Assembly (NCBI GenBank): GCA_021413805.1
Contig: JAIOPR010000010.1
Location: forward strand, 1-56,006
DNA: 56,006 nt
Reading direction: 5' to 3'
Origin: Planctomycetota bacterium
GTDB lineage: Bacteria > Planctomycetota > MHYJ01 > WSZJ01
The notes beneath the pieces are model-generated. The model did no database searches. It saw only the letters and a program-made list of their open reading frames with translations, and was not told where the DNA came from. Shown here in pieces: positions 13,796-40,604 of this stretch (positions are counted from its first letter, which is position 1; every line of letters begins with the position of its first letter). Both the position numbers and the translations under genes were made by a program.

Positions 13796-13899
13796 GTCGA
13801 GATCAAGAATTCCAGCATTTCCCGGTAAGAAACCTCCCGCACCGGCCCCCTGAATGGTTGAAGGGCCGCAATGGCGCGGCCCTGTAGAATGAGGCGCCC

Positions 13900-16047
13900 A
13901 TGAATATCTCTCCCGACCTGGTCCTCCTCGCCAAAACAGGCGACCGCCGCGCCCTCGCAAGCCTCGTCGCGGCCACCCAGGACCCGCTCTTCCATTTCCT
14001 CAATCGCGAACTCGGTTCCGCCGCCGACGCCGAAGACGCCCTGCAGGAAACCTGGCGGCAGGCGATCCGCTCGCTCCCCGGACTGCGCGATCCCGCTTCA
14101 TTCCGCGGCTGGATCCATCGCATCGCCATCCGCGCGGCCGGCGACCTCGCCCTGGCCCGCCGCGCCCGACATCGCGTCGAGGAGAACGCTTCAAGGAATG
14201 AACCGGTCGAGGACTCGGCCATGGCCGGAGCGGAGCGTCAGGAGACCGCAGAACGAGTCCGGGCAGCGGTTGCGTCGCTCGAGCCCAACCTCAGGACCGC
14301 CGTCCGGCTGCGTTACGAGCAGGGACTGTCGTACGAGGAAATCGCGGCGGCGACGGAAAGCCAGTCCGGGACGGTGGGGAAGAGGCTTCACACGGCGCAC
14401 GAGCGGTTGCGTGAAGCGTTGGCGGGGGTGGGCGTGGTGGTGGCGCTGGCGGTGCTGGAGCGCGAATTGGGAGCCGCGGAGCGCGTGGCGGCGCCGGAAT
14501 CGGCGAAGCGTCAGCTCGCGCAGCTGGTGAGGGGACGGTCGGCGGCCACCCCGACGGCGGGGAGAAAGCGGGGAGCGGCCGTTGCGGCCATCGCGGCGCT
14601 GCTCCTGATCGGGATCGCCTTCGTCTGGAAACAGGGCGCGGGCCGGGGCGCGGAGAAGGACGCGCGGCCGGGGGCCGAGAGAGTCAGCGGTGTGAACACG
14701 CCACGCAGCGAGGGAGCCGGTTCGGCGCCCGTGGTCGCTGGGGAGGTCGCTTCCGCCACCAGGAAGCCGCCTCCCGCCGAGCTGGCGGCCGCACCTGCGG
14801 AGACGGGGCGTGTGACCGGCGTCGTTCGCGACGTGTCCTCCGGGGCGCCGATCGCCGGCGCGCGGGTCCAACTCCGGCCCATCGGAACCCCGGAAGGGCG
14901 AAAGCCGGTCTACGGCGCAACAGACGACCACGGCGCATTCGTGCTCGATGCCGCCCCGGGCGCCTACTTCATCGATGCATGGTCCGACGACTACCCGGCA
15001 TTTTCCGTCCGCGATTTCGTCGAGGACATCGTCGTCCGCGGCCGGACCGAGGCGAAACCGGAGGGCCAAGTCGAGGACAACCCGCTCTTCATCGGCGTTC
15101 TTGCAGGCGGCCACTCGCAGAGAGATCTCGGGCTCGTCGCCGGGAAGCACCTGGCCGGCCGGGTGGTGGACTCCCGGGGGCTTCCGGTCGAAGGCGCGAC
15201 CGTGGATCCAGTCTTCCTGACCGTGCACGGCAAGATCGGGTTCGCGGCGTGCGAATGCGCTCCTTACGGCGTGCCATTGGAGCGCGTGACCGGTGTCGAC
15301 GGGCGATTTGCGCTTCCCGCCGTCTGGCCCGCGGGAAACCTCACGGTGAAGGTGTCGTGTCCCGGCTACCGGGAGGACGATGTGACGCTGGCGATCGACG
15401 AGGCCCGCGGTGAGATGACCTTGAAGATTGAATCGGCCTCAGCCTTTTCGGGCACCGTCAGCGACGTCCACGGCCATCCCGTTCAAGGCGCGCTCGTCTT
15501 CGCCGGGGCTGGCGATCCTGCGACAGGCGGCGTCTTCCTCATGCGGATCAAGCAGGGCGTTGACGAATCAGGGCGCTTCTCCGACCCCGGCACTCGTTCC
15601 CCGAAGATCGTGCTCGCCTGGGCGCCCGGCTATGGCCTAGCGGCCGCCGATCTCTCGACCTGCGATGCCTCCAGGCTGGACCTGCGCCTCGCCGTGGCAG
15701 ACGGCCGCATCCGCGGCGTCGTCCGCGACGACGCCGGGCTCGTGGTGGCCGGGGCGCGCGTGACCGCCATCCTGGTCGGGGTCACCTTTGGCTCGGCCGC
15801 CGTTTGCATGCCCCTCAATGACAACTTCACCGGGGCGAAAGGCGACCTGATCGCATTTCCTGCGACTGGCCTGCCCGCCCCGACAGCGACCACCGCCGTC
15901 GATGGGGGATTCGAGCTCGCGGGCGTTCCCTCCGGGGCCGGCACGTTTGTCACGCTTCGCGTTGAAGTGCCCGGGTCCAAGCCGAAAGTCGTACGGGTTC
16001 CGGATGGGGGAAGCGCGGACGTCACGCTGGACACGGCGGCAAAGTAG
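13900..16047 (+). CDS. ECF sigma factor fused to a TM helix and four carboxypeptidase-regulatory-like (CarboxypepD_reg) domains
   Basis: Region 2 is DAEDALQETWRQAI..FRGWIHRIAIRAA. Region 4 is LRTAVRLRYEQGLSYEEIAAATESQSGTVGKRLHTAHERL. The TM helix is AAVAAIAALLLIGIAFVW. The motif G-V-D..G.P..GA.V then repeats four times. Confidence 0.8.
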   Translation: MNISPDLVLLAKTGDRRALASLVAATQDPLFHFLNRELGSAADAEDALQETWRQAIRSLPGLRDPASFRGWIHRIAIRAAGDLALARRARHRVEENASRNEPVEDSAMAGAERQETAERVRAAVASLEPNLRTAVRLRYEQGLSYEEIAAATESQSGTVGKRLHTAHERLREALAGVGVVVALAVLERELGAAERVAAPESAKRQLAQLVRGRSAATPTAGRKRGAAVAAIAALLLIGIAFVWKQGAGRGAEKDARPGAERVSGVNTPRSEGAGSAPVVAGEVASATRKPPPAELAAAPAETGRVTGVVRDVSSGAPIAGARVQLRPIGTPEGRKPVYGATDDHGAFVLDAAPGAYFIDAWSDDYPAFSVRDFVEDIVVRGRTEAKPEGQVEDNPLFIGVLAGGHSQRDLGLVAGKHLAGRVVDSRGLPVEGATVDPVFLTVHGKIGFAACECAPYGVPLERVTGVDGRFALPAVWPAGNLTVKVSCPGYREDDVTLAIDEARGEMTLKIESASAFSGTVSDVHGHPVQGALVFAGAGDPATGGVFLMRIKQGVDESGRFSDPGTRSPKIVLAWAPGYGLAAADLSTCDASRLDLRLAVADGRIRGVVRDDAGLVVAGARVTAILVGVTFGSAAVCMPLNDNFTGAKGDLIAFPATGLPAPTATTAVDGGFELAGVPSGAGTFVTLRVEVPGSKPKVVRVPDGGSADVTLDTAAK

Positions 16048-17626: not shown

Positions 17627-18607
17627 CTACTTCCCGGTGGCGCCCTTCGCCTCGTCGAGCGCCGCGCCGACTTTCGCCTCGGCCTCGCTCCCTGCGAAGG
17701 CGCTTTTCGCTTTCGTGAGCAGGTCGAGCGTCTTTTTCGCGTCACCCGCCGCTTTCGCGTCGGCGATCGCCTTGTCGGCCGCCTCGTCGATCTCCTTCGC
17801 GATGAGCGCTGCCCGGTTTTTCACGTAAGCGCTCTTCGTCGCCGCGAGCTTCTTCAACATCCCTCCCGCCTTGCCGTACTGCTTGGCCTCGACGAAGCTG
17901 CGTGCGCCCTGGAGAAGCGGCACGGCGTCGGGGGGCACGAGGCCGTCGAGCCATTCGAACTGGTGCTGCCAGGCCTCGGGGGGCGGCGTGTGCGCCCAGT
18001 CGGCGGGCTCTTCGAAGGTGACGTCCATGCCCGCCTTCTTCATGTCCTCGACCGACTTCTTCGACTGGTCGTGGTTGAAATCATTGCCGCCGCTGACGAC
18101 GCGGAAAGGCGTCTGGAGAAGTTTCCGGGCGGTCGCTTCGTCGATCAGGCAACCGCTGACCGGCGCGCCGGCCGTGAAAACGTCGGTGTGGTCGGTGCAG
18201 AGATGGCAGGTCACGAACCCGCCCGCTGAGTGGCCGGAGCAGAAGACGCGGTCGCGGTCCACCGAGTACGTCGCGATGACCTCTTTGACGATCTCAAAGA
18301 CCTGCTTCATGTCGTCCTCGTCGTATCCCGCCGGGACTTTCGCCGCCGGCAGGCAGACGATGTAGCCCTTCTTCGCCATCGTGTAGTGGTTCTCATAGCT
18401 CTCCGGCCGGCCGCCCGATCCGTGGAACATCACGATCATCGGCAGCTTCACGCCCGGCTTCCACGTCCCGGGCACGGAGAGCACGTAGTAGCTCGTGCCG
18501 AATTCGATTTTCTGACGGCCCGGTTTCGCGGGGGTCGGGGTCCGGGGGGCCTGCGCGGCGGCGGGAAGAGCGAACAGAAGGAGGGCGAAGGCAAGGATCG
18601 GACGCAT
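17627..18607 (-). CDS. secreted alpha/beta hydrolase (esterase / PHB-depolymerase-like)
   Basis: The signal peptide is MRPILAFALLLFALPAAAQA. The nucleophile elbow is GHSAGG. MFHGSGG forms an oxyanion-type motif. Confidence 0.8.
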   Translation of the reverse strand: MRPILAFALLLFALPAAAQAPRTPTPAKPGRQKIEFGTSYYVLSVPGTWKPGVKLPMIVMFHGSGGRPESYENHYTMAKKGYIVCLPAAKVPAGYDEDDMKQVFEIVKEVIATYSVDRDRVFCSGHSAGGFVTCHLCTDHTDVFTAGAPVSGCLIDEATARKLLQTPFRVVSGGNDFNHDQSKKSVEDMKKAGMDVTFEEPADWAHTPPPEAWQHQFEWLDGLVPPDAVPLLQGARSFVEAKQYGKAGGMLKKLAATKSAYVKNRAALIAKEIDEAADKAIADAKAAGDAKKTLDLLTKAKSAFAGSEAEAKVGAALDEAKGATGK

Positions 18608-18698: not shown

Positions 18699-19253
18699 TC
18701 ACTTTCCCGACCGGCTCGTCCGGTTCGCGAGGCCGGCGGGAGCGCAGTCGAACGCGTGGTTGAAGCGCGCCGAAAAATTCTCGAGCGCGACCGCGCCGGC
18801 GAGCTCGACCATGGCGACGTCTCCAAATTTCTCCCGCAGCTCCGCGAACGTCGCGTCGTCCACGTGGGCCGGCGTGTCGGTCATGGCGTCGGAGAACCGC
18901 AGCACCGCGCGCTCGAGCGGCGACAGCGCGGCCGCTTCGGGCCCTTCACGCACCGCCGTGATCTTCTCGTTCGTGACTTTCGCCTCCCGGGCGAAGTACG
19001 TCGTGATGTCCATTCAGAACGGGCAGCCGACGCGCATCGCGACGCGGGCCATCGCGATCGATTTCATCTCCAGGGGCAGCTTGTGCGGTTTCTCGACGGC
19101 CCGGAGCAGCTTCCCGAAAGCCATCATCAGCCGCGGCACCAGCGCGTAGATCCGCGTCGGCTCGAGCACCTGCCCCCAGATGGAGCGCAGCCGCCAGTAC
19201 GCAAGCCGGACAATCAGCGGGCCTTTTCCGTCCCTGACGCCGGGCAGGCGCAT
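18699..19253 (-). CDS. AhpD-like / carboxymuconolactone decarboxylase family protein with in-frame TGA (probable selenocysteine, CPFU motif)
   Basis: Track ORFs 19014-19385 and 18699-19013 are contiguous and in frame, separated only by TGA (19016-19014). Joined, they read ...ARVAMRVGCPF-U-MDITTYFAREAKVTNEKI...PLERAVLRFSDAMTDTP...VELAGAVALENFSARFNHAF, a complete CMD-family domain. ATG 19253 has GGAG upstream. Confidence 0.7.
18972..19002 (-). other. SECIS-like hairpin downstream of the in-frame UGA
   Basis: The mRNA reads UGA-N13-CGUAC-UUCGCC-CGGGA-GGCGAA-A-GU-C-ACG. The upper stem is 6 bp, the apical loop is 5 nt (CGGGA), and the lower stem is 5 bp with bulges. The loop starts 24 nt after the UGA. 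Confidence 0.5.
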
Positions 19254-19366
19254 GGGAGATCTCCGTGGGAGGTGCGGCACAACTCGACACACCGGCCTGA
19301 TCTTAGACTGGCGACGGGGATTCGTGTATTTCGCGAAACGATCGCCGCGGCCCGGGCCGGCGCGGA

Positions 19367-20503
19367 CTACCTGGCCGACGAGCACTGCGCGTAAATCTCT
19401 TCGACTTCGCGGGCCACGAAGGCGCTTTTCCAGGTTTTCGTCCGCGCCGCCCGCTCCAATGCGGGAAGTGCGGCCGGGTCGCCGATTGCGGCGAGTGCTT
19501 TTGCGGCGCCCCAGGAGAGGAACTCGTTGTCGCCTTCGAGGATCTCGATGAGCCCGGGGACAGCCGAGCGGTCGCCGATGCGCCCGATGGCCGCGAGTGC
19601 GAACTCACGGAAACCATCCTCCTCGGAAGTGTCGAGCGCCTTCTCGAACAGCACCGGGACAGCCGCCGCTGCCTTCAGGTCGGAGAGCGCCTGGACGTAT
19701 TCGAAACAATCGCGCTCGGCACGAGTTGCCTCGATGAGCGCGCCGGAAACCGAAGGATCGCCGGGACGGGAGAGGGCCCAGGCCGCACGGGCGCGGACGG
19801 CGGGTGACGGGTCGCGAAGGAGATCCAGAAGGGCCGCGGAAGCGTCGCCGGTGCGCATCAGGCCTAGCGCGTTGACGGCGTTGCGGCGGAGGTCGGCAGA
19901 CGGGGAAGCGAGGAATGAGAAGGCGAGGTCGCGGACGGAGGAGCGAACGGAAGGGGCCTGCTCACCGATCTGCCCGAGAGTCAAGATCGCCAGACCCCGG
20001 ATCGCGTCGGATCGGGAGCTGTCCGAAGCAAGTGCAGTCAGGTCGGCGACCGCCTCGGGATCGCCGAGGAAGCCGAGAAGCTCAAAAGCCACCTGGCGGG
20101 CCGCTTCACCGGCGCCGGGATTCCCGCAGATTTCAAGCAGGATCCGGACGTCCGCGAGCGAATGGTGGGCCTTCAGGGCTTCCGCGAGCCCCTGTATCGA
20201 GGCGCGATCCCCGGCCGTCATGAGGCGAACGAGGTCGCCCGCTGACGGGGTTGAAGTCGCCGTGCGTGATCCGGCGACGGTCGGAGACGCCAGTGCCTCC
20301 ACCTCGCCGTCGCCAACCCGCAACCCCGCTTCCGTGTCTACCGATCCGGCTCGATTGACCGTATCGACCTCGTTCGGGAGCGCAGGGACGCGGCGCGTGA
20401 ACAGGATGAAGGCAATGGCGACGGCGCACCCGGCGGCGATCGCCAGGCCGCACAGGCGGCGAATCAGGGGGGAATCTGGAAGGGCGGTCCTGGGGGTCTT
20501 CAT
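19367..20503 (-). CDS. membrane-anchored HEAT-repeat (PBS-lyase-like) protein
   Basis: ATG 20503 gives a TM anchor LCGLAIAAGCAVAIAFILF. Repeated motifs D..VR..A..ALG..GD..A...L follow. Confidence 0.75.
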   Translation of the reverse strand: MKTPRTALPDSPLIRRLCGLAIAAGCAVAIAFILFTRRVPALPNEVDTVNRAGSVDTEAGLRVGDGEVEALASPTVAGSRTATSTPSAGDLVRLMTAGDRASIQGLAEALKAHHSLADVRILLEICGNPGAGEAARQVAFELLGFLGDPEAVADLTALASDSSRSDAIRGLAILTLGQIGEQAPSVRSSVRDLAFSFLASPSADLRRNAVNALGLMRTGDASAALLDLLRDPSPAVRARAAWALSRPGDPSVSGALIEATRAERDCFEYVQALSDLKAAAAVPVLFEKALDTSEEDGFREFALAAIGRIGDRSAVPGLIEILEGDNEFLSWGAAKALAAIGDPAALPALERAARTKTWKSAFVAREVEEIYAQCSSAR

Positions 20504-22174: not shown

Positions 22175-22332
22175 CTCTTATCCAGACCGGTCGAGGGATG
22201 TGGCCCGATGACACCGGGGCAACCACCCGCAAGGGGAAGGTGCCAATTCCCACCCGCGACGTGGCGGGGGAGATAAGAGGTGAGGCACTGTCGCCAACCC
22301 TCGTCTTCCCCGAAAAGGAACGAGGGTTTTTT
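22175..22332 (+). promoter_or_regulatory. SAM-I (S-box) riboswitch aptamer (22175-22279) plus intrinsic terminator (22298-22332)
   Basis: The aptamer reads CUCUUAUC-CAGAC-CGGUCGAGGGAUGUGGCCCGAUGACACCGGGGCAACC...GGUGCCAAUUCC...GGAGAUAAGAG and matches the S-box consensus almost block for block. CCCUCGU-15 nt-ACGAGGG plus U6 then ends 1 nt before the hom GTG. Confidence 0.9.
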
Positions 22333-22333
22333 C

Positions 22334-23647
22334 GTGGCACAGATCACGCTGGGGCTGATCGGGCTCGGGACGGTGGGGACGGGCGTGGTGCGCCTGCTCC
22401 GCGAGAACGGGGACCTGATCGAGAAGAAGACGGGCATCCGGTTCCGGCTGAAGAAGATCGCGGACCGGGGGATTCACCTGTTCAGGGAATTCCCGCTCGA
22501 CGGGTACGAGCTGGCCGAGAAGGCGGAGGCCGTGCTCGAGGACCCGGAGATCGAAATCGCGATCGAGCTGATCGGCGGGTACGAGCCGGCGCGGACGTAC
22601 CTGCTTCAGGCCATCGAGAGCGGGAAGCACGTCGTCACCGCGAACAAGGCGCTTCTGGCGAAGTTCGGGGGCGAGATTTTCGCCCTGGCCGACAAGGTCG
22701 GGGTTGAGGTCGGGTTCGAGGGAAGTGTCGCGGGGACGGTGCCGATCATCCGCGTGCTGCAGGACGGGCTCGCCGCGAACCGGATCGAGAAGGTGATGGG
22801 GATCGTGAACGGCACGACGAATTTCATCCTGACCCGCATGACGGAGGATGGGATGTCGTACGCGGAGGCGCTGGCCGAAGCGACGCGGCGCGGGTTTGCG
22901 GAAGCGGACCCGACGCTGGATGTGGATGGCGAGGATGCGGCGCACAAGCTGTCGATCCTCGCGACGCTGGCGTTCGGGGTGCGGCCGGAGCGCGGGGACA
23001 TCCACGTCGAGGGGATCCGCGATCTCGGCTCGGAGGACATCGCGTTCGCGAAGGACAACGGCTACGTCATCAAGCTCCTCGCCATCGGCCGCAAGACCAA
23101 CGGCCACGTCGAGCTGCGCGTCCACCCCGCGCTCGTCCCGAAGAACCACCCGCTGGCCTCCGTCCGCGATGAGTTCAACGCCGTCTTCGTCAAGGGCGAC
23201 GCTTCCCGCGAAACCATGTACTACGGCCGCGGCGCCGGCCAGATGCCCACCGCTTCCGCCGTCCTCAGCGACATCATCGAGATCGCCGAGCGCGCTCTCC
23301 ACTCGCCGCGCGGATCGCGGCCTGCCGAATCGCGGATGAGAAAGCGCACGCTCTACTGGAGTTCGGACAAGTTCAAGCCGATCTATGAAGTCCGGACGCG
23401 CTATTACCTCCGGTTCCCGATCGCCGACACACCCGGCGCCATCGGGGCCCTCACGACCATCCTCGGCAAACACGGCGTCTCCATCGCCGCCGTGCGCGCT
23501 TCCATTGTCGATTCCTCAGCGAAAAAGGGGCGGATCGAGATCCTGACGCACGAAGCGGAGGAAATGGCGGTGAAGGTGTCGTGCACGGAGATCGACGCGA
23601 CAGGGATCCTGCGGGATCGGCCGCGGTTGATCCGCGTGGAGGACTAG
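22334..23647 (+). CDS. hom: homoserine dehydrogenase
   Basis: The NAD motif is GLIGLGTVGTGV. Central motifs are GTVPIIRVL and VMGIVNGTTNFILT. A C-terminal ACT domain is present. GTG start at 22334. Confidence 0.9.
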   Translation: MAQITLGLIGLGTVGTGVVRLLRENGDLIEKKTGIRFRLKKIADRGIHLFREFPLDGYELAEKAEAVLEDPEIEIAIELIGGYEPARTYLLQAIESGKHVVTANKALLAKFGGEIFALADKVGVEVGFEGSVAGTVPIIRVLQDGLAANRIEKVMGIVNGTTNFILTRMTEDGMSYAEALAEATRRGFAEADPTLDVDGEDAAHKLSILATLAFGVRPERGDIHVEGIRDLGSEDIAFAKDNGYVIKLLAIGRKTNGHVELRVHPALVPKNHPLASVRDEFNAVFVKGDASRETMYYGRGAGQMPTASAVLSDIIEIAERALHSPRGSRPAESRMRKRTLYWSSDKFKPIYEVRTRYYLRFPIADTPGAIGALTTILGKHGVSIAAVRASIVDSSAKKGRIEILTHEAEEMAVKVSCTEIDATGILRDRPRLIRVED

Positions 23648-23649
23648 CC

Positions 23650-24627
23650 ATGAACACGCTTCCGATGACGAAGACGTTCCAGGTCACCACGGGGGACCTC
23701 GCGACGAACCGCCGGCCCGCGCCGAAAGCGAAAGGGTTGAAGGCGGGCGAAGGGGTCTCGGTGCGGGCGCCGGCGACGACGTCGAATCTCGGGCCCGGGT
23801 TTGATGCGTTCGGGCTGGCGCTGTCGCTCGAGAACGAGGCGGTGTTCGAAGCGGCGGACCGGTGGCATGTGGAGATCAACGGCGAAGGCGCGGGGGCGCT
23901 GCCGACCGACGGGGCCAACCTGATCGCGAAGGCCTGCGCGCTGGGGCTTGAAACCTGGGGGAGCGTGCTGAAGGCGCGGATTTCCTGTGTGAACCGGATT
24001 CCTCTCGGGCGCGGACTGGGGTCGAGCGCGGCGGCGATCGTCACGGGGCTGGCGGGGGCGGCGGCGCTTTCCGGGAAAAACCCGGGGCGCGACGAGATCC
24101 TCGAGCTCGCGCTGAAGCTGGAGCCGCACCCGGACAACCTCGCGGCGTGCCTGTGGGGATCGTTCACGATCGCGGCGCCGCCTCATGTCGTGACGCTGCC
24201 GTGGCCCGAGACGCTGCGCATCGTCGCGGCGATCCCGGACTTCGCCGTCGAGACCGCGAAAGCCCGGGCGCTTCTCCCGAAATCGATCTCCCGTGAGGAC
24301 GCCGTGCACAATATCGCCCGCGCCGCCGTGCTCGCCGCGGCGCTGGCCTCGGAGTCGTTCCTGCCGGCGTGGGCGTTCGACGACAAGCTGCACCAGGACC
24401 ACCGGGCGCCGCTCGTCAAAGCCTGGCCCGCCGCCCGTGACGCGGCCATCGCGGCCGGCGCGCTCGGCGCCGCCATATCGGGTTCCGGTCCCACGCTCGT
24501 CGCCTTCACGAACTCGCACACGAAGGACGTCGGGGCCGCCCTCGCGGCCGAATTCACCAAAGTCGGCGCCAGGGCGCGCGTGCTCGAACTCGGGCCCGCC
24601 GCCGGCGCTTCATGGAGGAAATCATGA
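23650..24627 (+). CDS. thrB: homoserine kinase
   Basis: APATTSNLGPGFDAFGLAL and PLGRGLGSSAAAIV are GHMP kinase motifs. There is a ~30-aa N-terminal extension relative to typical ThrB. Confidence 0.9.
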   Translation: MNTLPMTKTFQVTTGDLATNRRPAPKAKGLKAGEGVSVRAPATTSNLGPGFDAFGLALSLENEAVFEAADRWHVEINGEGAGALPTDGANLIAKACALGLETWGSVLKARISCVNRIPLGRGLGSSAAAIVTGLAGAAALSGKNPGRDEILELALKLEPHPDNLAACLWGSFTIAAPPHVVTLPWPETLRIVAAIPDFAVETAKARALLPKSISREDAVHNIARAAVLAAALASESFLPAWAFDDKLHQDHRAPLVKAWPAARDAAIAAGALGAAISGSGPTLVAFTNSHTKDVGAALAAEFTKVGARARVLELGPAAGASWRKS

Positions 24628-25886
24628 CCACCGCCACCACTCCCAACGCCCGCGCCGCCACCGCCGCGCGCCTCAAGGGCCTCAAGTGCCGCGAGTGCGG
24701 CACGGTCGTCCCGATCGCGCCGGTGTACGTCTGCGAGGAATGCTACGGGCCGCTCGAAGTCATTTACGACTACGACGAGATCCGCCGCCAGTTGACGCGG
24801 GAGAAGATCGAGAAGGGCCCGAGGTCCATCTGGCGGTACATGCCGCTCCTGCCCGTGAGCGAGGACTGCATCGTCACGCTTCATGAGGGCTGCACCCCCC
24901 TCGTCCCCGCGCCGCGGCTGGGCAAGGAGCTCGGCCTCACGAACCTCTGGATCAAGAACGACGCCGTGAACCCGACGTACTCGTTCAAGGACCGCGTCGT
25001 TGCCTGCGCCGTTTCGCGGGCGAAGGAGTTCGGGTTCGACACCGTGTCGTGCGCTTCAACCGGCAACCTCGGCTGCTCGGTCGCGGCGTTCGGCGGAATC
25101 TCGGGGATGCGGCCGATTATCTTCATCCCGGCCGACCTCGAGCCTTCCAAGATCGTCGGCATCAGCAGCTATTCGCCGACGCTCATCGCGGTGGAAGGAA
25201 ACTACGACGAGGTCAACCGCCTGTGCGCGGAGATCAGCGCGACGAAGAACTGGGCGTTCGTGAACATCAACCTGCGACCGTTCTACAGCGAAGGCTCGAA
25301 GACCCTCGGCTACGAGGTCGCCGAGCAGCTCGGCTGGCGCGCCCCCGACCACGTCGTCCTCCCGATCGCCAGTGGCTCGCTGCTCTGCAAGGTCTACAAG
25401 GCGCTCCACGAGCTCGAAACGCTCGGGCTGATCGGCAAAGTGAACACCCGGGTCAGCGGCGCGCAGGCCACCGGGTGCGCCCCGGTTGCCAGTGCATTCC
25501 TCGAAAAGCGCGACGAAATCGTCCCCGTGAGGCCGCAGACGATCGCCAAGTCGCTCGCCATCGGCAACCCCGCCGACGGGACTTACGCGCTCGACATCAT
25601 CCGGAAAACGGGCGGAGGCGCCGCGATGATCACTGACGAGGAAATCGTCGTCGCGATGAAGCTTCTCGCCCGCACCGAGGGGATCTTCACGGAAACCGCC
25701 GGGGGCGTCACCATCGGCACCGTCGCGAAGCTCGCGAAACAGGGCGTCATCGGCCGCGACGAGCTCGTCGTCGCCTACATCACCGGGAACGGCTACAAGA
25801 CGGTTGAAGCGATCATCCCGACGCTGCCGAAGCCCATTGTGATCAAGCCGACGCTGAAGGAAGTCGAGCGCGCGCTCGGCGTTTAA
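24624..25886 (+). CDS. thrC: threonine synthase with N-terminal zinc ribbon
   Basis: ATG 24624 overlaps the thrB stop (ATGA) and follows GGAGGA (24614-24619). An alternative ATG lies at 24612. Motifs: CRECG...CEECYG, the PLP lysine motif NPTYSFKDRVV, and GNLG. Confidence 0.9.
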   Translation: MTTATTPNARAATAARLKGLKCRECGTVVPIAPVYVCEECYGPLEVIYDYDEIRRQLTREKIEKGPRSIWRYMPLLPVSEDCIVTLHEGCTPLVPAPRLGKELGLTNLWIKNDAVNPTYSFKDRVVACAVSRAKEFGFDTVSCASTGNLGCSVAAFGGISGMRPIIFIPADLEPSKIVGISSYSPTLIAVEGNYDEVNRLCAEISATKNWAFVNINLRPFYSEGSKTLGYEVAEQLGWRAPDHVVLPIASGSLLCKVYKALHELETLGLIGKVNTRVSGAQATGCAPVASAFLEKRDEIVPVRPQTIAKSLAIGNPADGTYALDIIRKTGGGAAMITDEEIVVAMKLLARTEGIFTETAGGVTIGTVAKLAKQGVIGRDELVVAYITGNGYKTVEAIIPTLPKPIVIKPTLKEVERALGV

Positions 25887-33783: not shown

Positions 33784-34146
33784 TCAGGAAAGCTTCTCAA
33801 CGACCGTGTCGATGATCCCGTAGTCGAGCGCTTCCGTTGCGGTCATCCGACACCCGCGCTTCATGTCGCCCTCGATTAGCCCGGGAAGCCGCCCCGTGTC
33901 TTTCGCCATCTGCTGGATGAACTCCGTGCGGAGCCTCGCGATTTCCTGGGCCTGCCTCGGGGAAGAGGTCGATCCGCCCCACAATTCATCGAATCCGATC
34001 CGCGCGTTCGGAAGCGCCGCGCGGTGGCCGAAGAGCAGATTGGCGACGGTCTCGGTCGCGACCGCATCATCGATCGGGGTCCCGATGAAGACGATCCGTT
34101 CCTTGAGCAGACGTGCGATCAATTCGCTGAGAGTCGGTGTGCCCAA
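33784..34146 (-). CDS. ClpP-derived 120-aa protein (internal deletion, no catalytic residues); possibly a pseudogene remnant
   Basis: TTG start 6 nt after AAGGAGGAAG. LLKERIVFIGTPIDDAVATETVANLLF joins directly to AALPNARIGFDELWGG...EALDYGIIDTVV. The ~70-aa segment carrying the Ser nucleophile is absent. Confidence 0.55.
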   Translation of the reverse strand: MGTPTLSELIARLLKERIVFIGTPIDDAVATETVANLLFGHRAALPNARIGFDELWGGSTSSPRQAQEIARLRTEFIQQMAKDTGRLPGLIEGDMKRGCRMTATEALDYGIIDTVVEKLS

Positions 34147-34207
34147 CGCTTCCTCCTTCTTCGTTGCCGTTGTGATTCCGCCCGGCGCCCGTCATCATGC
34201 CACGCCC

Positions 34208-38864: not shown

Positions 38865-40547
38865 TTACTCGAGCGGGATCTTCTGCCGGGGCCGCTTGAG
38901 CAGCAGGGTCGTCCAGCTCACCCGCGCTTCCCGGTCATCCCCCGCGTGCCGCTTCACCGCCTCTCCCCGCGCTTTCGCCCGCGGCGACGACGCCGGCTCC
39001 CGCGTCGCCCGGTCCAGTTCCTCCGCGCTGAAATACGGGCGCGACTGCCCCGCTTCACGCAGGACGTGGCCGTAGCCGCGCGGGCCGATCTCATGGAAGC
39101 GGGTGTCGATTTTCTGCGCCGTGGCCGCGGTGGCGGTGCCGGCCGTCGCGACCGCCACGCCTCGCCAGCCGCCGTCCTCCGCGAGCGCCTCGGCCACCAG
39201 GTCGCGCTTCGCCACCCAGTCGAGGTCCTTGTAGAGGAGGTGCGGGTCCTCGGCGAGGGCGCCGAGGACGAAGCGCCATTTCGAGAGGATCTCGGCGGTT
39301 TCGGGCTCGGCGTTGGTGCCGCAGAATTTCTCGGCTTCCTCGAGGAAGTGGCGCTGGATTTCGAGTGCGGTCGCCGATCCGCCGGCGGCGAGCGGAATCG
39401 AGGCGCGGAGGGAAACGTCGCCGTCCACGATCGCGATGGCCTGGCGGAGGTCGCGCGGCGTGAAATCGCGAAGCGGGTGGCCGGCCTCGATCATGCGGAG
39501 GACGAGGTCGGTCGTGCCGAGCCTGAGCGCGGTCGCGAGGCGCGAGGTGTTCGAGTCGGCGAACAGCACCTGCAGCCGTTTCCTTCGTTTCCAGATGCTC
39601 CACGGCTCGCGCACGAAATTCTTGAGGTCGAAGACCGGGCGGGCGTCGTCGTCCCAGAAGATACCGGAGGCGACGCGGATGGCGGGGCCCTTGTGCGAAA
39701 GAGCGAGGCGCCCTTCGCCGGCCTCGACGCGGCCGGGGCCGCAGAAGACAAGGCGCGTGACGAGGTGGGGGAGGAGCAGCTGCCGCGTGCGGGGGAGAAC
39801 GATGAATCGCAGGAACAGGCTGTAGACGCGGATCCACGGGATTGTGACCGCGTAGGTCAGGTCCATGAGGCGCGTCAGCGACTCCTCCCTGAACGCTGCG
39901 CGTCCGAGCCCCACGATCCCCCGCGCCGCCGCCGCGAACGGCCGGCCGGCGCCCGGAAGGTGCGCGAGCGCCGTGCAGACGTGGTACGCAGCGGCGATGA
40001 AAAGCAGGAACGCGTAAAACATGACGATCAGCGCCACTTCCACCAGGAGCACGGGGATCCAGAACACCGGGAATACCAGCGCGACGAGCAGGCGCCGAAG
40101 CGCCCCCGGCGGCTCGTCGACTTCGTAGTTCTCGTGCGACCCCCACACGTTCCCCGCCGTGTCCGCCGCCGCCTTCCCGATCACCAGCTCCCCGTCAAAT
40201 CCGCGGGTCCGCAGCCGGAATTCCACCTCCTGGTGCACCCGCCCCAGAAGTTCGTCCTGCCCGTGGTGGTACCGCGCCGCTTCAAGCGCCCCGCGGCACT
40301 CGGGCGTCGCCATCTCCAGCAGACCCTTCGAAAACCTCGCCGTCGGCGCCTCGTAGTGCAGCAGCCCGCCCGTGGACAGGAAGATGCCGCTCTTCGGAAG
40401 CGCAGCCGGCAGCGTGGGGATCTCGGCGCGCACAGCCGCTTCCACAAGCTGGTAGATGTCGCGCGGAAGTGGCGCGCGGGCTCCGGGCTCGCGGGGCACC
40501 CAGGCGAGGGCGTACTCGGTCTCGACGCCGATCAGTCGGGGGTGCAT
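38865..40547 (-). CDS. Pup-ligase family protein (PafA/Dop homologue) with a ~110-aa hydrophobic insertion
   Basis: Family blocks: RLIGVETEYA, LEMATPEC, NVWGSHENY, LLPHLVTRLVFCGPGRV, LQVLFADSNTSRLATALRLGTTDLVLRMIEAG, ALEIQRHF, LDWVAKRDL and IDTRFHEI. Between HENY and LVTR lies LLVALVFPVFWIPVLLVEVALIVMFYAFLLFIAAAYHVCTALAHL plus further hydrophobic sequence. Confidence 0.88.
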   Translation of the reverse strand: MHPRLIGVETEYALAWVPREPGARAPLPRDIYQLVEAAVRAEIPTLPAALPKSGIFLSTGGLLHYEAPTARFSKGLLEMATPECRGALEAARYHHGQDELLGRVHQEVEFRLRTRGFDGELVIGKAAADTAGNVWGSHENYEVDEPPGALRRLLVALVFPVFWIPVLLVEVALIVMFYAFLLFIAAAYHVCTALAHLPGAGRPFAAAARGIVGLGRAAFREESLTRLMDLTYAVTIPWIRVYSLFLRFIVLPRTRQLLLPHLVTRLVFCGPGRVEAGEGRLALSHKGPAIRVASGIFWDDDARPVFDLKNFVREPWSIWKRRKRLQVLFADSNTSRLATALRLGTTDLVLRMIEAGHPLRDFTPRDLRQAIAIVDGDVSLRASIPLAAGGSATALEIQRHFLEEAEKFCGTNAEPETAEILSKWRFVLGALAEDPHLLYKDLDWVAKRDLVAEALAEDGGWRGVAVATAGTATAATAQKIDTRFHEIGPRGYGHVLREAGQSRPYFSAEELDRATREPASSPRAKARGEAVKRHAGDDREARVSWTTLLLKRPRQKIPLE

Positions 40548-40604
40548 GAAGGGCCTGGGGCGCGCAGGACCTCCGCCGAGGGGCGGAGGAGAAGGGCGGG
40601 GGAG

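Follow-up and report, generated by a model that had tools for sequence, protein, structure and literature searches.

Within a DNA stretch of 56,006 nucleotides from a Planctomycetota bacterium (GenBank assembly GCA_021413805.1, contig JAIOPR010000010.1), hereafter referred to in its entirety as the window, positions 18699-19253 of the reverse strand very probably constitute one intact gene for a selenoprotein of the AhpD-like/CMD type, in which an in-frame UGA at codon 80 would be decoded as selenocysteine (Sec) within the redox motif C77-P-F-U80. A previous sequence-only reading of the window had proposed a CxxU selenoprotein split by callers of open reading frames (ORFs), and this proposal is supported by the exchange of TGA and Cys codons at the same alignment column, by selection acting on both halves of the gene, and by a covarying hairpin downstream of the UGA. 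The comparative hallmarks by which bacterial selenoproteins have been predicted (PMC1088965), namely a conserved UGA, Cys-containing homologues, conservation downstream of the UGA and a stem-loop resembling a selenocysteine insertion sequence (SECIS), all appear to be present at this locus. The best explanation of the product is a 184-residue cytoplasmic thiol/selenol oxidoreductase with the AhpD/CMD fold.

Gene structure and protein family

The ORFs 19014-19385 and 18699-19013 on the reverse strand are contiguous and in the same frame, with the TGA at 19016-19014 as their only separator, as had been described from the sequence. Direct reading of the junction returned the same letters, ...MARVAMRVGCPF-TGA-MDITTYFAREAKVTNEKI, the context of the codon being ...VGCPF-TGA-MDITTYFAREAK..., and translation from the ATG at 19253 gives 79 residues, Sec and a further 104 residues, which agrees with the predicted length of the joined product. 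The redox motif quoted for this subfamily was essentially right; C77, F79, C/U80 and D82 do not vary in the alignment. All orthologues start at the corresponding Met, with the consensus MR[LIM]PGV. The true terminator of the gene is also a UGA, and no conserved hairpin follows this terminal codon at 18699-18701. The positions of these elements, together with those of a second TGA site in relatives that is discussed below, are collected in Table 1.

Table 1. Positions of the AhpD-like gene and its elements in the window, and of the in-frame TGA codon of the FG-GAP gene in related loci (L numbers)
Feature	Position	Strand	Size or sequence	Basis or remark
Complete coding sequence, predicted AhpD-like/CMD selenoprotein	18699..19253	(-)	184 residues including Sec80, plus terminal stop	Single frame, TGA the sole interruption
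Codon 80, in-frame UGA predicted to be read as Sec	19014..19016	(-)	TGA	TGA conserved at the column; TGC/TGT in Cys forms
Redox motif C77-P-F-U80	19014..19025	(-)	TGC CCG TTC TGA	Direct sequence reading
SECIS-like hairpin	18979..18995	(-)		Geometry, covariation, low synonymous diversity, covariance-model match
Hairpin, 5' arm	18995-18990	(-)	UUCGCC	
Hairpin, loop	18989-18985	(-)	CGGGA	
Hairpin, 3' arm	18984-18979	(-)	GGCGAA	
Start ATG (19253-19251) and GGAG (19264-19261)	19251..19264	(-)	GGAG 7 nt upstream of ATG	Direct sequence reading
True terminator	18699..18701	(-)	UGA	Direct sequence reading
FG-GAP TGA, L001	13554-13556	(-)		
FG-GAP TGA, L011	2314-2316	(-)		
FG-GAP TGA, L014	2376-2378	(-)		
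FG-GAP TGA, L007	1886-1888	(-)		
FG-GAP TGA, L175	2989-2991	(+)		

Several independent comparisons extend across the TGA. When Cys is placed at the TGA codon, the Pfam family PF02627 (CMD) matches residues 40-120 with 39.3 bits (cut-off 23, E 6.6e-10). A profile of the family compared with solved structures retrieved Bmp8 (E 1.3e-22), PA0269, Atu0492 and several AhpD proteins, with the CxxC of these proteins aligned with CPF-U. The structure was modelled on P0001, a natural Cys-type relative that is 70% identical to the window protein, and the resulting AlphaFold model consists of one all-helical AhpD-like domain with a core predicted local distance difference test (pLDDT) of 82-95 (residues 61-160), in which the CxxC lies at the N-terminus of the helix 78-90, inside the confident core. 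Foldseek searches with this model gave significant matches only to AhpD-family/CMD structures (mlr4105, PA0269, Atu0492, Bmp8), with probability 1.0. Because the Pfam match, the structure matches and the P0001 model all span the TGA, the two ORFs are regarded as halves of one domain that is cut inside its active site.

With regard to curated models, the top NCBIfam hit is NF053654 (GroundWater_YciW, 'YciW-related (seleno)protein'), which reaches 78.9 of the required 310 bits over residues 23-170 of the window protein, while TIGR01926 reaches 46.3 of the required 81.8 bits. The wider family, characterized by the motif GCPF-U-[VIM]D, scores 95-139 bits against NF053654 and 36-39 bits against TIGR01926.

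Conservation of the TGA codon and of the hairpin among relatives

A protein search with the window sequence recovered ten clusters of 102-104-residue 'proteins' that correspond to the downstream half alone (59-86% identical), together with a single Cys form of full length, P0001, and more distant proteins of the Cys type. In every contig encoding such a half, a 79-residue gene abuts it, and the gene is split wherever it has been found; GenBank, for instance, lists the downstream half of one relative as MEK7467855.1, 'hypothetical protein'. The junction codon is TGA in all eight lineages of the window's clade (the window, L001, L003, L008, L009, L011, L014 and L095). Scans of JGI metagenomes and of a collection of species-representative genomes supplied 160 further loci, of which 97 show TGA in this column, within the motif GCPF-TGA-[VIM]D or ECAF-TGA-[IV]D; the patterns used in these scans were back-translated and required a Cys codon in one of two motifs, and the resulting TGA:Cys ratio of 97:30 is thus a biased frequency. 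The column is TGC or TGT in 58 distinct Cys-type sequences, and in the protein alignment P0001 and P0013-17 have Cys there without exception, so that alignment of orthologues, as the sequence-only reading had suggested, separates TGA-bearing from Cys-type relatives at exactly this position.

The metagenome-assembled genomes (MAGs) that bear the TGA are labelled as Methylomirabilota/Rokubacteria, Binataceae, Desulfuromonadales, Alpha-, Beta- and Gammaproteobacteria and others, and they are joined by the cultured Vineibacter terrae. Several of the MAG labels attached to the matches, 'Enterobacteriaceae' and 'Pedobacter' for example, seem questionable for GC-rich environmental contigs. The 56-kb contig itself is placed with Planctomycetota MAGs by synteny, the shared genes encoding homoserine dehydrogenase, a GHMP kinase, a PALP enzyme, sigma-70/CarboxypepD_reg fusions, an S9-type hydrolase and a HEAT-repeat protein. 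A subgroup with the motif ECAF-TGA-[I/V]D comprises L016-L018, L096 and L097 (from MAGs labelled Desulfuromonadales and, in one case, Pedobacter); it shares with the window's clade the hairpin position and the loop CGUGA, with the two outer stem pairs exchanged between the two groups (CUUCGCC/GGCGAAG vs UCUCGCC/GGCGGGA).

Both halves of the gene evolve as coding sequence. Within the window's clade, in which pairwise synonymous divergence (pS) amounts to 0.30-0.57, the ratio of nonsynonymous to synonymous change (dN/dS) ranges from 0.04 to 0.56 over codons 1-79 and from 0.14 to 0.47 over codons 81-182, and no clade member contains a frameshift or an extra stop. The window copy departs only once from columns that are otherwise invariant in the clade, by the conservative substitution L66I. 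Further disruptions, which would have been expected of a decaying copy, are thus missing on either side of the TGA.

The hairpin reported in the sequence-only reading, UUCGCC-CGGGA-GGCGAA with a loop starting 24 nt after the UGA, was recovered exactly; its upper stem of 6-7 bp and its loop are conserved in relatives, but the lower extension that had been drawn (CGUAC / GU-C-ACG) is not. A hairpin of at least 5 bp lies just 3' of the UGA in 98 of 98 distinct Sec-type sequences, with a stem of at least 6 bp in 97 of them. The distance from the UGA to the start of the loop is 18 nt in 79 sequences, 24 nt in the eight of the window's clade and 22 nt in seven. The stems vary by clade, including GCAUCC/GGAUGC, CUCUGCC/GGCAGAG, UUCCGUC/GACGGAA, UCCCUC/GAGGGA, UUCCGCG/CGCGGAA, CUUCGCC/GGCGAAG and UCUCGCC/GGCGGGA, and the loops are small, nearly all with G at position 1 or 2 (CGUG, CGGG, GUG, CGUGU, CGUGA). 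When the classes whose loops measure 5 nt, the window's among them, are aligned, 95% of cells are paired and changes on both sides occur in seven of seven pairs, in comparison with 47-59% of cells paired in slid controls. A covariance model built exclusively from the hairpins of other clades (R1) was applied to both strands of the whole window, and its top match, at 18976-18998 (-) with 14.5 bits, falls exactly on the hairpin.

Constraint on this segment is also visible at the nucleotide level, as synonymous diversity in the window's clade is 0.16 over codons 79-90 and 0.31-0.60 elsewhere, and the eight Sec forms hardly differ in their DNA from the TGA up to the 3' arm. The hairpin is missing or displaced in Cys forms. 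The closest of these, P0001 (70% identity), is encoded at L007 364-918 (+) and is nested in the Sec clade; its stem is broken by three synonymous changes (GCC to GCG, GAG to GAA and GCG to GCC). The sequence of L007 suggests that Cys replaced Sec recently and that the organism has kept the ability to decode Sec, given that the adjoining FG-GAP gene, described below, retains its TGA. The hairpin is thus conserved and covarying across Sec forms and lost in the closest Cys form.

Alternatives to selenocysteine insertion

A number of observations weigh against the assignment of this gene as a selenoprotein gene. The genes selA, selB and selD are absent among the approximately 40 probable genes of the 56-kb window as judged by Pfam, the tRNA scan of the window found no tRNA gene and hence no tRNA-Sec there, and a scan restricted to tRNA-Sec found none in 1.54 Mb of relatives' flanks; the small doubt that is left about the assignment attaches to this machinery. 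The window protein lies below the cut-off of every curated (seleno)protein model in NCBIfam. As for the hairpin, it is no more stable than dinucleotide shuffles (z 0.04), it has no SECIS match in Rfam at either the gathering or a permissive threshold, and 17 of 58 Cys-type homologues also contain a stem of at least 6 bp within the range searched; the segments entering the covariation analysis had been located by a hairpin search, a bias that the fixed distance from the TGA limits but does not remove, and the R1 match is statistically marginal (E 0.05), although its position is exact. The significance of the hairpin rests on comparison across relatives, because the hairpin taken by itself does not exceed chance. 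On the other hand, complete sets of Sec-insertion genes are documented in some Planctomycetes (PMC4807772), and the lineage appears to decode Sec because relatives hold another TGA/Cys site, independent of the first and followed by a hairpin of its own.

The sequence-only reading had itself offered a nonsense pseudogene as the alternative. On this view, a single TGC/TGT-to-TGA change inactivated an AhpD-like gene of the Cys type, and the half beyond it would be decaying. Such an event requires one nucleotide change, a Cys-type relative exists at 70% identity (P0001/L007), and the Sec machinery is not seen in the window; however, the TGA is common to eight lineages that have diverged to a pS of 0.3-0.57 and to 97 distant loci, the downstream half shows the low dN/dS given above with one conservative private change, and the synonymous sites beside the TGA are frozen rather than relaxed. 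Because both halves are under purifying selection without frameshifts or added stops, a decaying pseudogene is effectively excluded, and the residual probability assigned to this explanation is very small. An error of sequencing or assembly that turned TGC into TGA in the window has no specific support and is contradicted by the occurrence of the same TGA in independent ENA, JGI, NCBI and Logan assemblies, which renders it negligible.

Two further explanations retain the conserved TGA and differ in what the ribosome does there. In one, translation stops at the UGA and restarts by coupling at an adjacent AUG, yielding polypeptides of 79 and 104 residues that perhaps assemble; this would be in keeping with the ATG that directly follows the TGA in the window and with the annotation of genes of 79 and 103/104 residues by callers in all databases. 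The residue after the TGA, however, belongs to the family motif CxxC-[VIM]-D, in which it is conserved as [V/I/M] in Cys forms too, and most Sec-type loci use ATC, ATT, ATA, GTC or GTA there, which are poor start codons or none at all. Furthermore, the TGA is aligned exactly with the invariant catalytic Cys, and in the predicted structure the CxxC/U opens a helix in the middle of a compact domain, where a split would cost half of the active site; two separate genes are therefore considered highly improbable. In the other, the UGA would be read through independently of a SECIS by a near-cognate or suppressor tRNA (Trp, Cys or Arg), or would have been reassigned, a notion compatible with the lack of observed Sec machinery in the window and with the capacity of a hairpin, in principle, to stimulate generic read-through. 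Against it, UGA is an ordinary terminator in the window, ending about 16 of about 40 probable genes, the AhpD-like gene included, and for this reason it has not been reassigned. The site also coincides with a redox Cys column, the hallmark of Sec/Cys exchange, and its hairpin has the placement and the small G-containing loop of bacterial SECIS elements (PMC1088965). In addition, the arrangement recurs in MAGs labelled as many phyla, and the second TGA/Cys site of relatives points the same way, leaving read-through or reassignment with only a slight chance of being correct.

A scan of the window for in-frame TGA codons with coding signal on both sides yielded this codon only, and the other four candidates proved to be gene ends before a same-frame neighbour or antisense shadows.

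Under the preferred explanation, Sec insertion at UGA80, the stem-loop UUCGCC-CGGGA-GGCGAA, located 18-35 nt past the UGA, would act as a bacterial SECIS and, following the established bacterial pathway, recruit SelB with guanosine triphosphate (GTP) and Sec-tRNA(Sec) to the ribosome. Selenocysteine would then be inserted at UGA80 instead of termination, and translation would run on to the stop at 18699-18701. By analogy with the chemistry of the AhpD family, the selenolate at the N-terminus of the helix would be the attacking nucleophile and Cys77 would resolve the intermediate as a selenenylsulfide, while peroxides, disulfides and electrophiles are all conceivable substrates.

Relation to known systems, linked genes and other features

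AhpD-like (COG2128) and CMD-domain CxxU selenoproteins were predicted as bacterial families in 2005 from the Sargasso Sea metagenome (PMC1088965), AhpD-like 1 and AhpD-like 2 are among the most abundant selenoprotein families in the Global Ocean Sampling (GOS) data (PMC2398784), and AhpD-like/CMD selenoproteins are listed in a 2026 review (PMC13188914); the three sources bear out the statement in the sequence-only reading that AhpD-like proteins are a recognised bacterial selenoprotein family. The window protein resembles this published CxxU class in its fold family, in the placement of Sec at the second Cys of CxxC, in its abundant Cys homologues, in a hairpin just past the UGA and in the routine splitting of its gene by pipelines. 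It differs from TIGR01926-type AhpD-like proteins in scoring below their cut-off, and the likeness is one at class level that is not tied to AhpD-like 1, AhpD-like 2 or the CMD-like group. Its clade is associated with Planctomycetota, and the distance between hairpin and UGA is 6 nt greater in this clade than in most other members. NF053654, a family recognised to include Sec forms, matches the window protein over nearly the full length, but the score is far under the cut-off, and the window protein is accordingly a relative of that equivalog rather than a member.

By sequence, the closest solved structure is that of Bmp8, a tetrabromopyrrole debrominase (PDB 6ohi/6ohj), whose GCMYC is aligned to GCPFU. 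Bmp8 is a thiol-dependent enzyme of the CMD fold with about 22% identity to the window protein, it contains Cys rather than Sec, and no bmp gene cluster is present in the window. As a weaker reading, its relatedness suggests that the Sec form might be a dehalogenase-type enzyme instead of a peroxide or disulfide reductase. The AhpD of Mycobacterium tuberculosis (1gu9), PA0269 (2ijc/2o4d/7xw1) and Atu0492 (2gmy) are all-helical proteins with CxxC at a helix N-terminus, as predicted here.

AhpD proper carries the motif CxxCxxxH, in which the second Cys is the reactive nucleophile, the position taken by Sec here, and the His belongs to a proton relay. In the window protein this His is missing; Thr84 takes the corresponding place, four residues beyond U80, Asn is found there in most members of the wider family, and Asp82 is invariant instead. 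No peroxiredoxin/ahpC gene was found by Pfam among the approximately 40 ORFs of the window, and the protein, which has neither the motif His nor an ahpC neighbour, is not a member of AhpD proper. The putative SECIS resembles the Escherichia coli fdhF type in being a stem-loop within the coding sequence that directly follows the UGA and has G/U in its small apical loop; unlike the fdhF type, it shows no sequence similarity and no Rfam match, and its conserved part is restricted to a minimal stem of 6-7 bp.

The class is already known, and what is mildly new is the Planctomycetota-associated clade together with the GCPF-U-[VIM]D family, both of which fall under all NCBIfam cut-offs and appear in public annotation as split genes or as 'hypothetical', and also the 6-nt displacement of the hairpin in the window's clade. 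General knowledge of selenoproteins is unchanged by this finding, and its value is mainly practical, concerning mis-annotation, as a model for the GCPF-U-[VIM]D family would rescue many split selenoprotein genes. The clade also offers a natural example of Sec/Cys exchange, with a closest Cys form that lost the hairpin through synonymous changes and a 6-nt shift of the SECIS inside a single protein family.

In four relatives (L001, L011, L014 and L007), an FG-GAP/VCBS-repeat gene adjoins the AhpD-like gene and contains a conserved in-frame TGA in the context ..VETG-TGA-CVGFGPQVADLDGDG.. (...VETG-TGA-CVGFGPQ...). A strong conserved hairpin, GGUCCGC-AGGUN-GCGGACC, follows this TGA, and full-length homologues have Cys at the column (TGCCIGF, TGCCVGF, AGCYVGF and NGCRTGF), while a homologue from Fimbriimonadaceae possesses the same TGA and the same hairpin. 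Gene callers cut this gene into pieces of about 100 and about 300 residues. The protein matches no NCBIfam model, a link between FG-GAP/VCBS proteins and selenoproteins was found neither in the text of the 2026 review (PMC13188914) nor in a literature search, and the gene is absent from the window. On sequence grounds, the AhpD-like CxxU protein and the secreted FG-GAP/VCBS protein may form a linked selenoprotein pair in this clade, with the FG-GAP protein representing an undescribed family, a suggestion put forward tentatively and with more doubt than confidence. If it were true, an undescribed FG-GAP selenoprotein family, possibly working with the AhpD-like protein, would be added to those known.

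A further TGA occurs in one relative, at L095 2200-2202 (+), in an S9/polyhydroxybutyrate (PHB)-depolymerase-like hydrolase gene located 3' of the AhpD-like gene (..APVSG-TGA-LVNE..). The corresponding codon is TGC, encoding Cys (..APVSG-C-L..), in the window (18149-18151 (-)) and in all other clade loci with the motif. This is a single instance with no clear hairpin, for which replacement of Cys by Sec, a nonsense mutation and an error of sequencing are all possible origins.

Several other features of the window deserve mention. Its only Rfam feature is a S-adenosylmethionine (SAM) riboswitch (RF00162) at 22175-22279 (+), with 87.6 bits, located directly upstream of the genes for homoserine dehydrogenase, the GHMP kinase and the PALP enzyme (22277-25886). 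At 33787-34191 (-), a ClpP remnant is present, of which the Pfam profile matches only the C-terminal half (positions 99-181); an N-terminal ClpP-like stretch (LLKERIVFIGTPIDD) precedes the profile match, two stops lie just upstream of the remnant, and the central part, the expected site of the catalytic Ser, appears to be deleted. To judge from these letters, this ClpP is probably degraded or non-catalytic. Pupylation components are best known from Actinobacteria, and a protein of the Pup-ligase family (PF03136, E 3e-70) is encoded at 38865-40604 (-) on this contig with Planctomycetota synteny. Finally, the gene at 13888-16047 (+) encodes a fusion of about 700 residues that combines regions 2 and 4 of an extracytoplasmic function (ECF)-type sigma-70 factor with CarboxypepD_reg domains, and sigma-70/CarboxypepD_reg paralogues flank the AhpD-like gene in relatives (L001 5268-9595 and 10328-12496).

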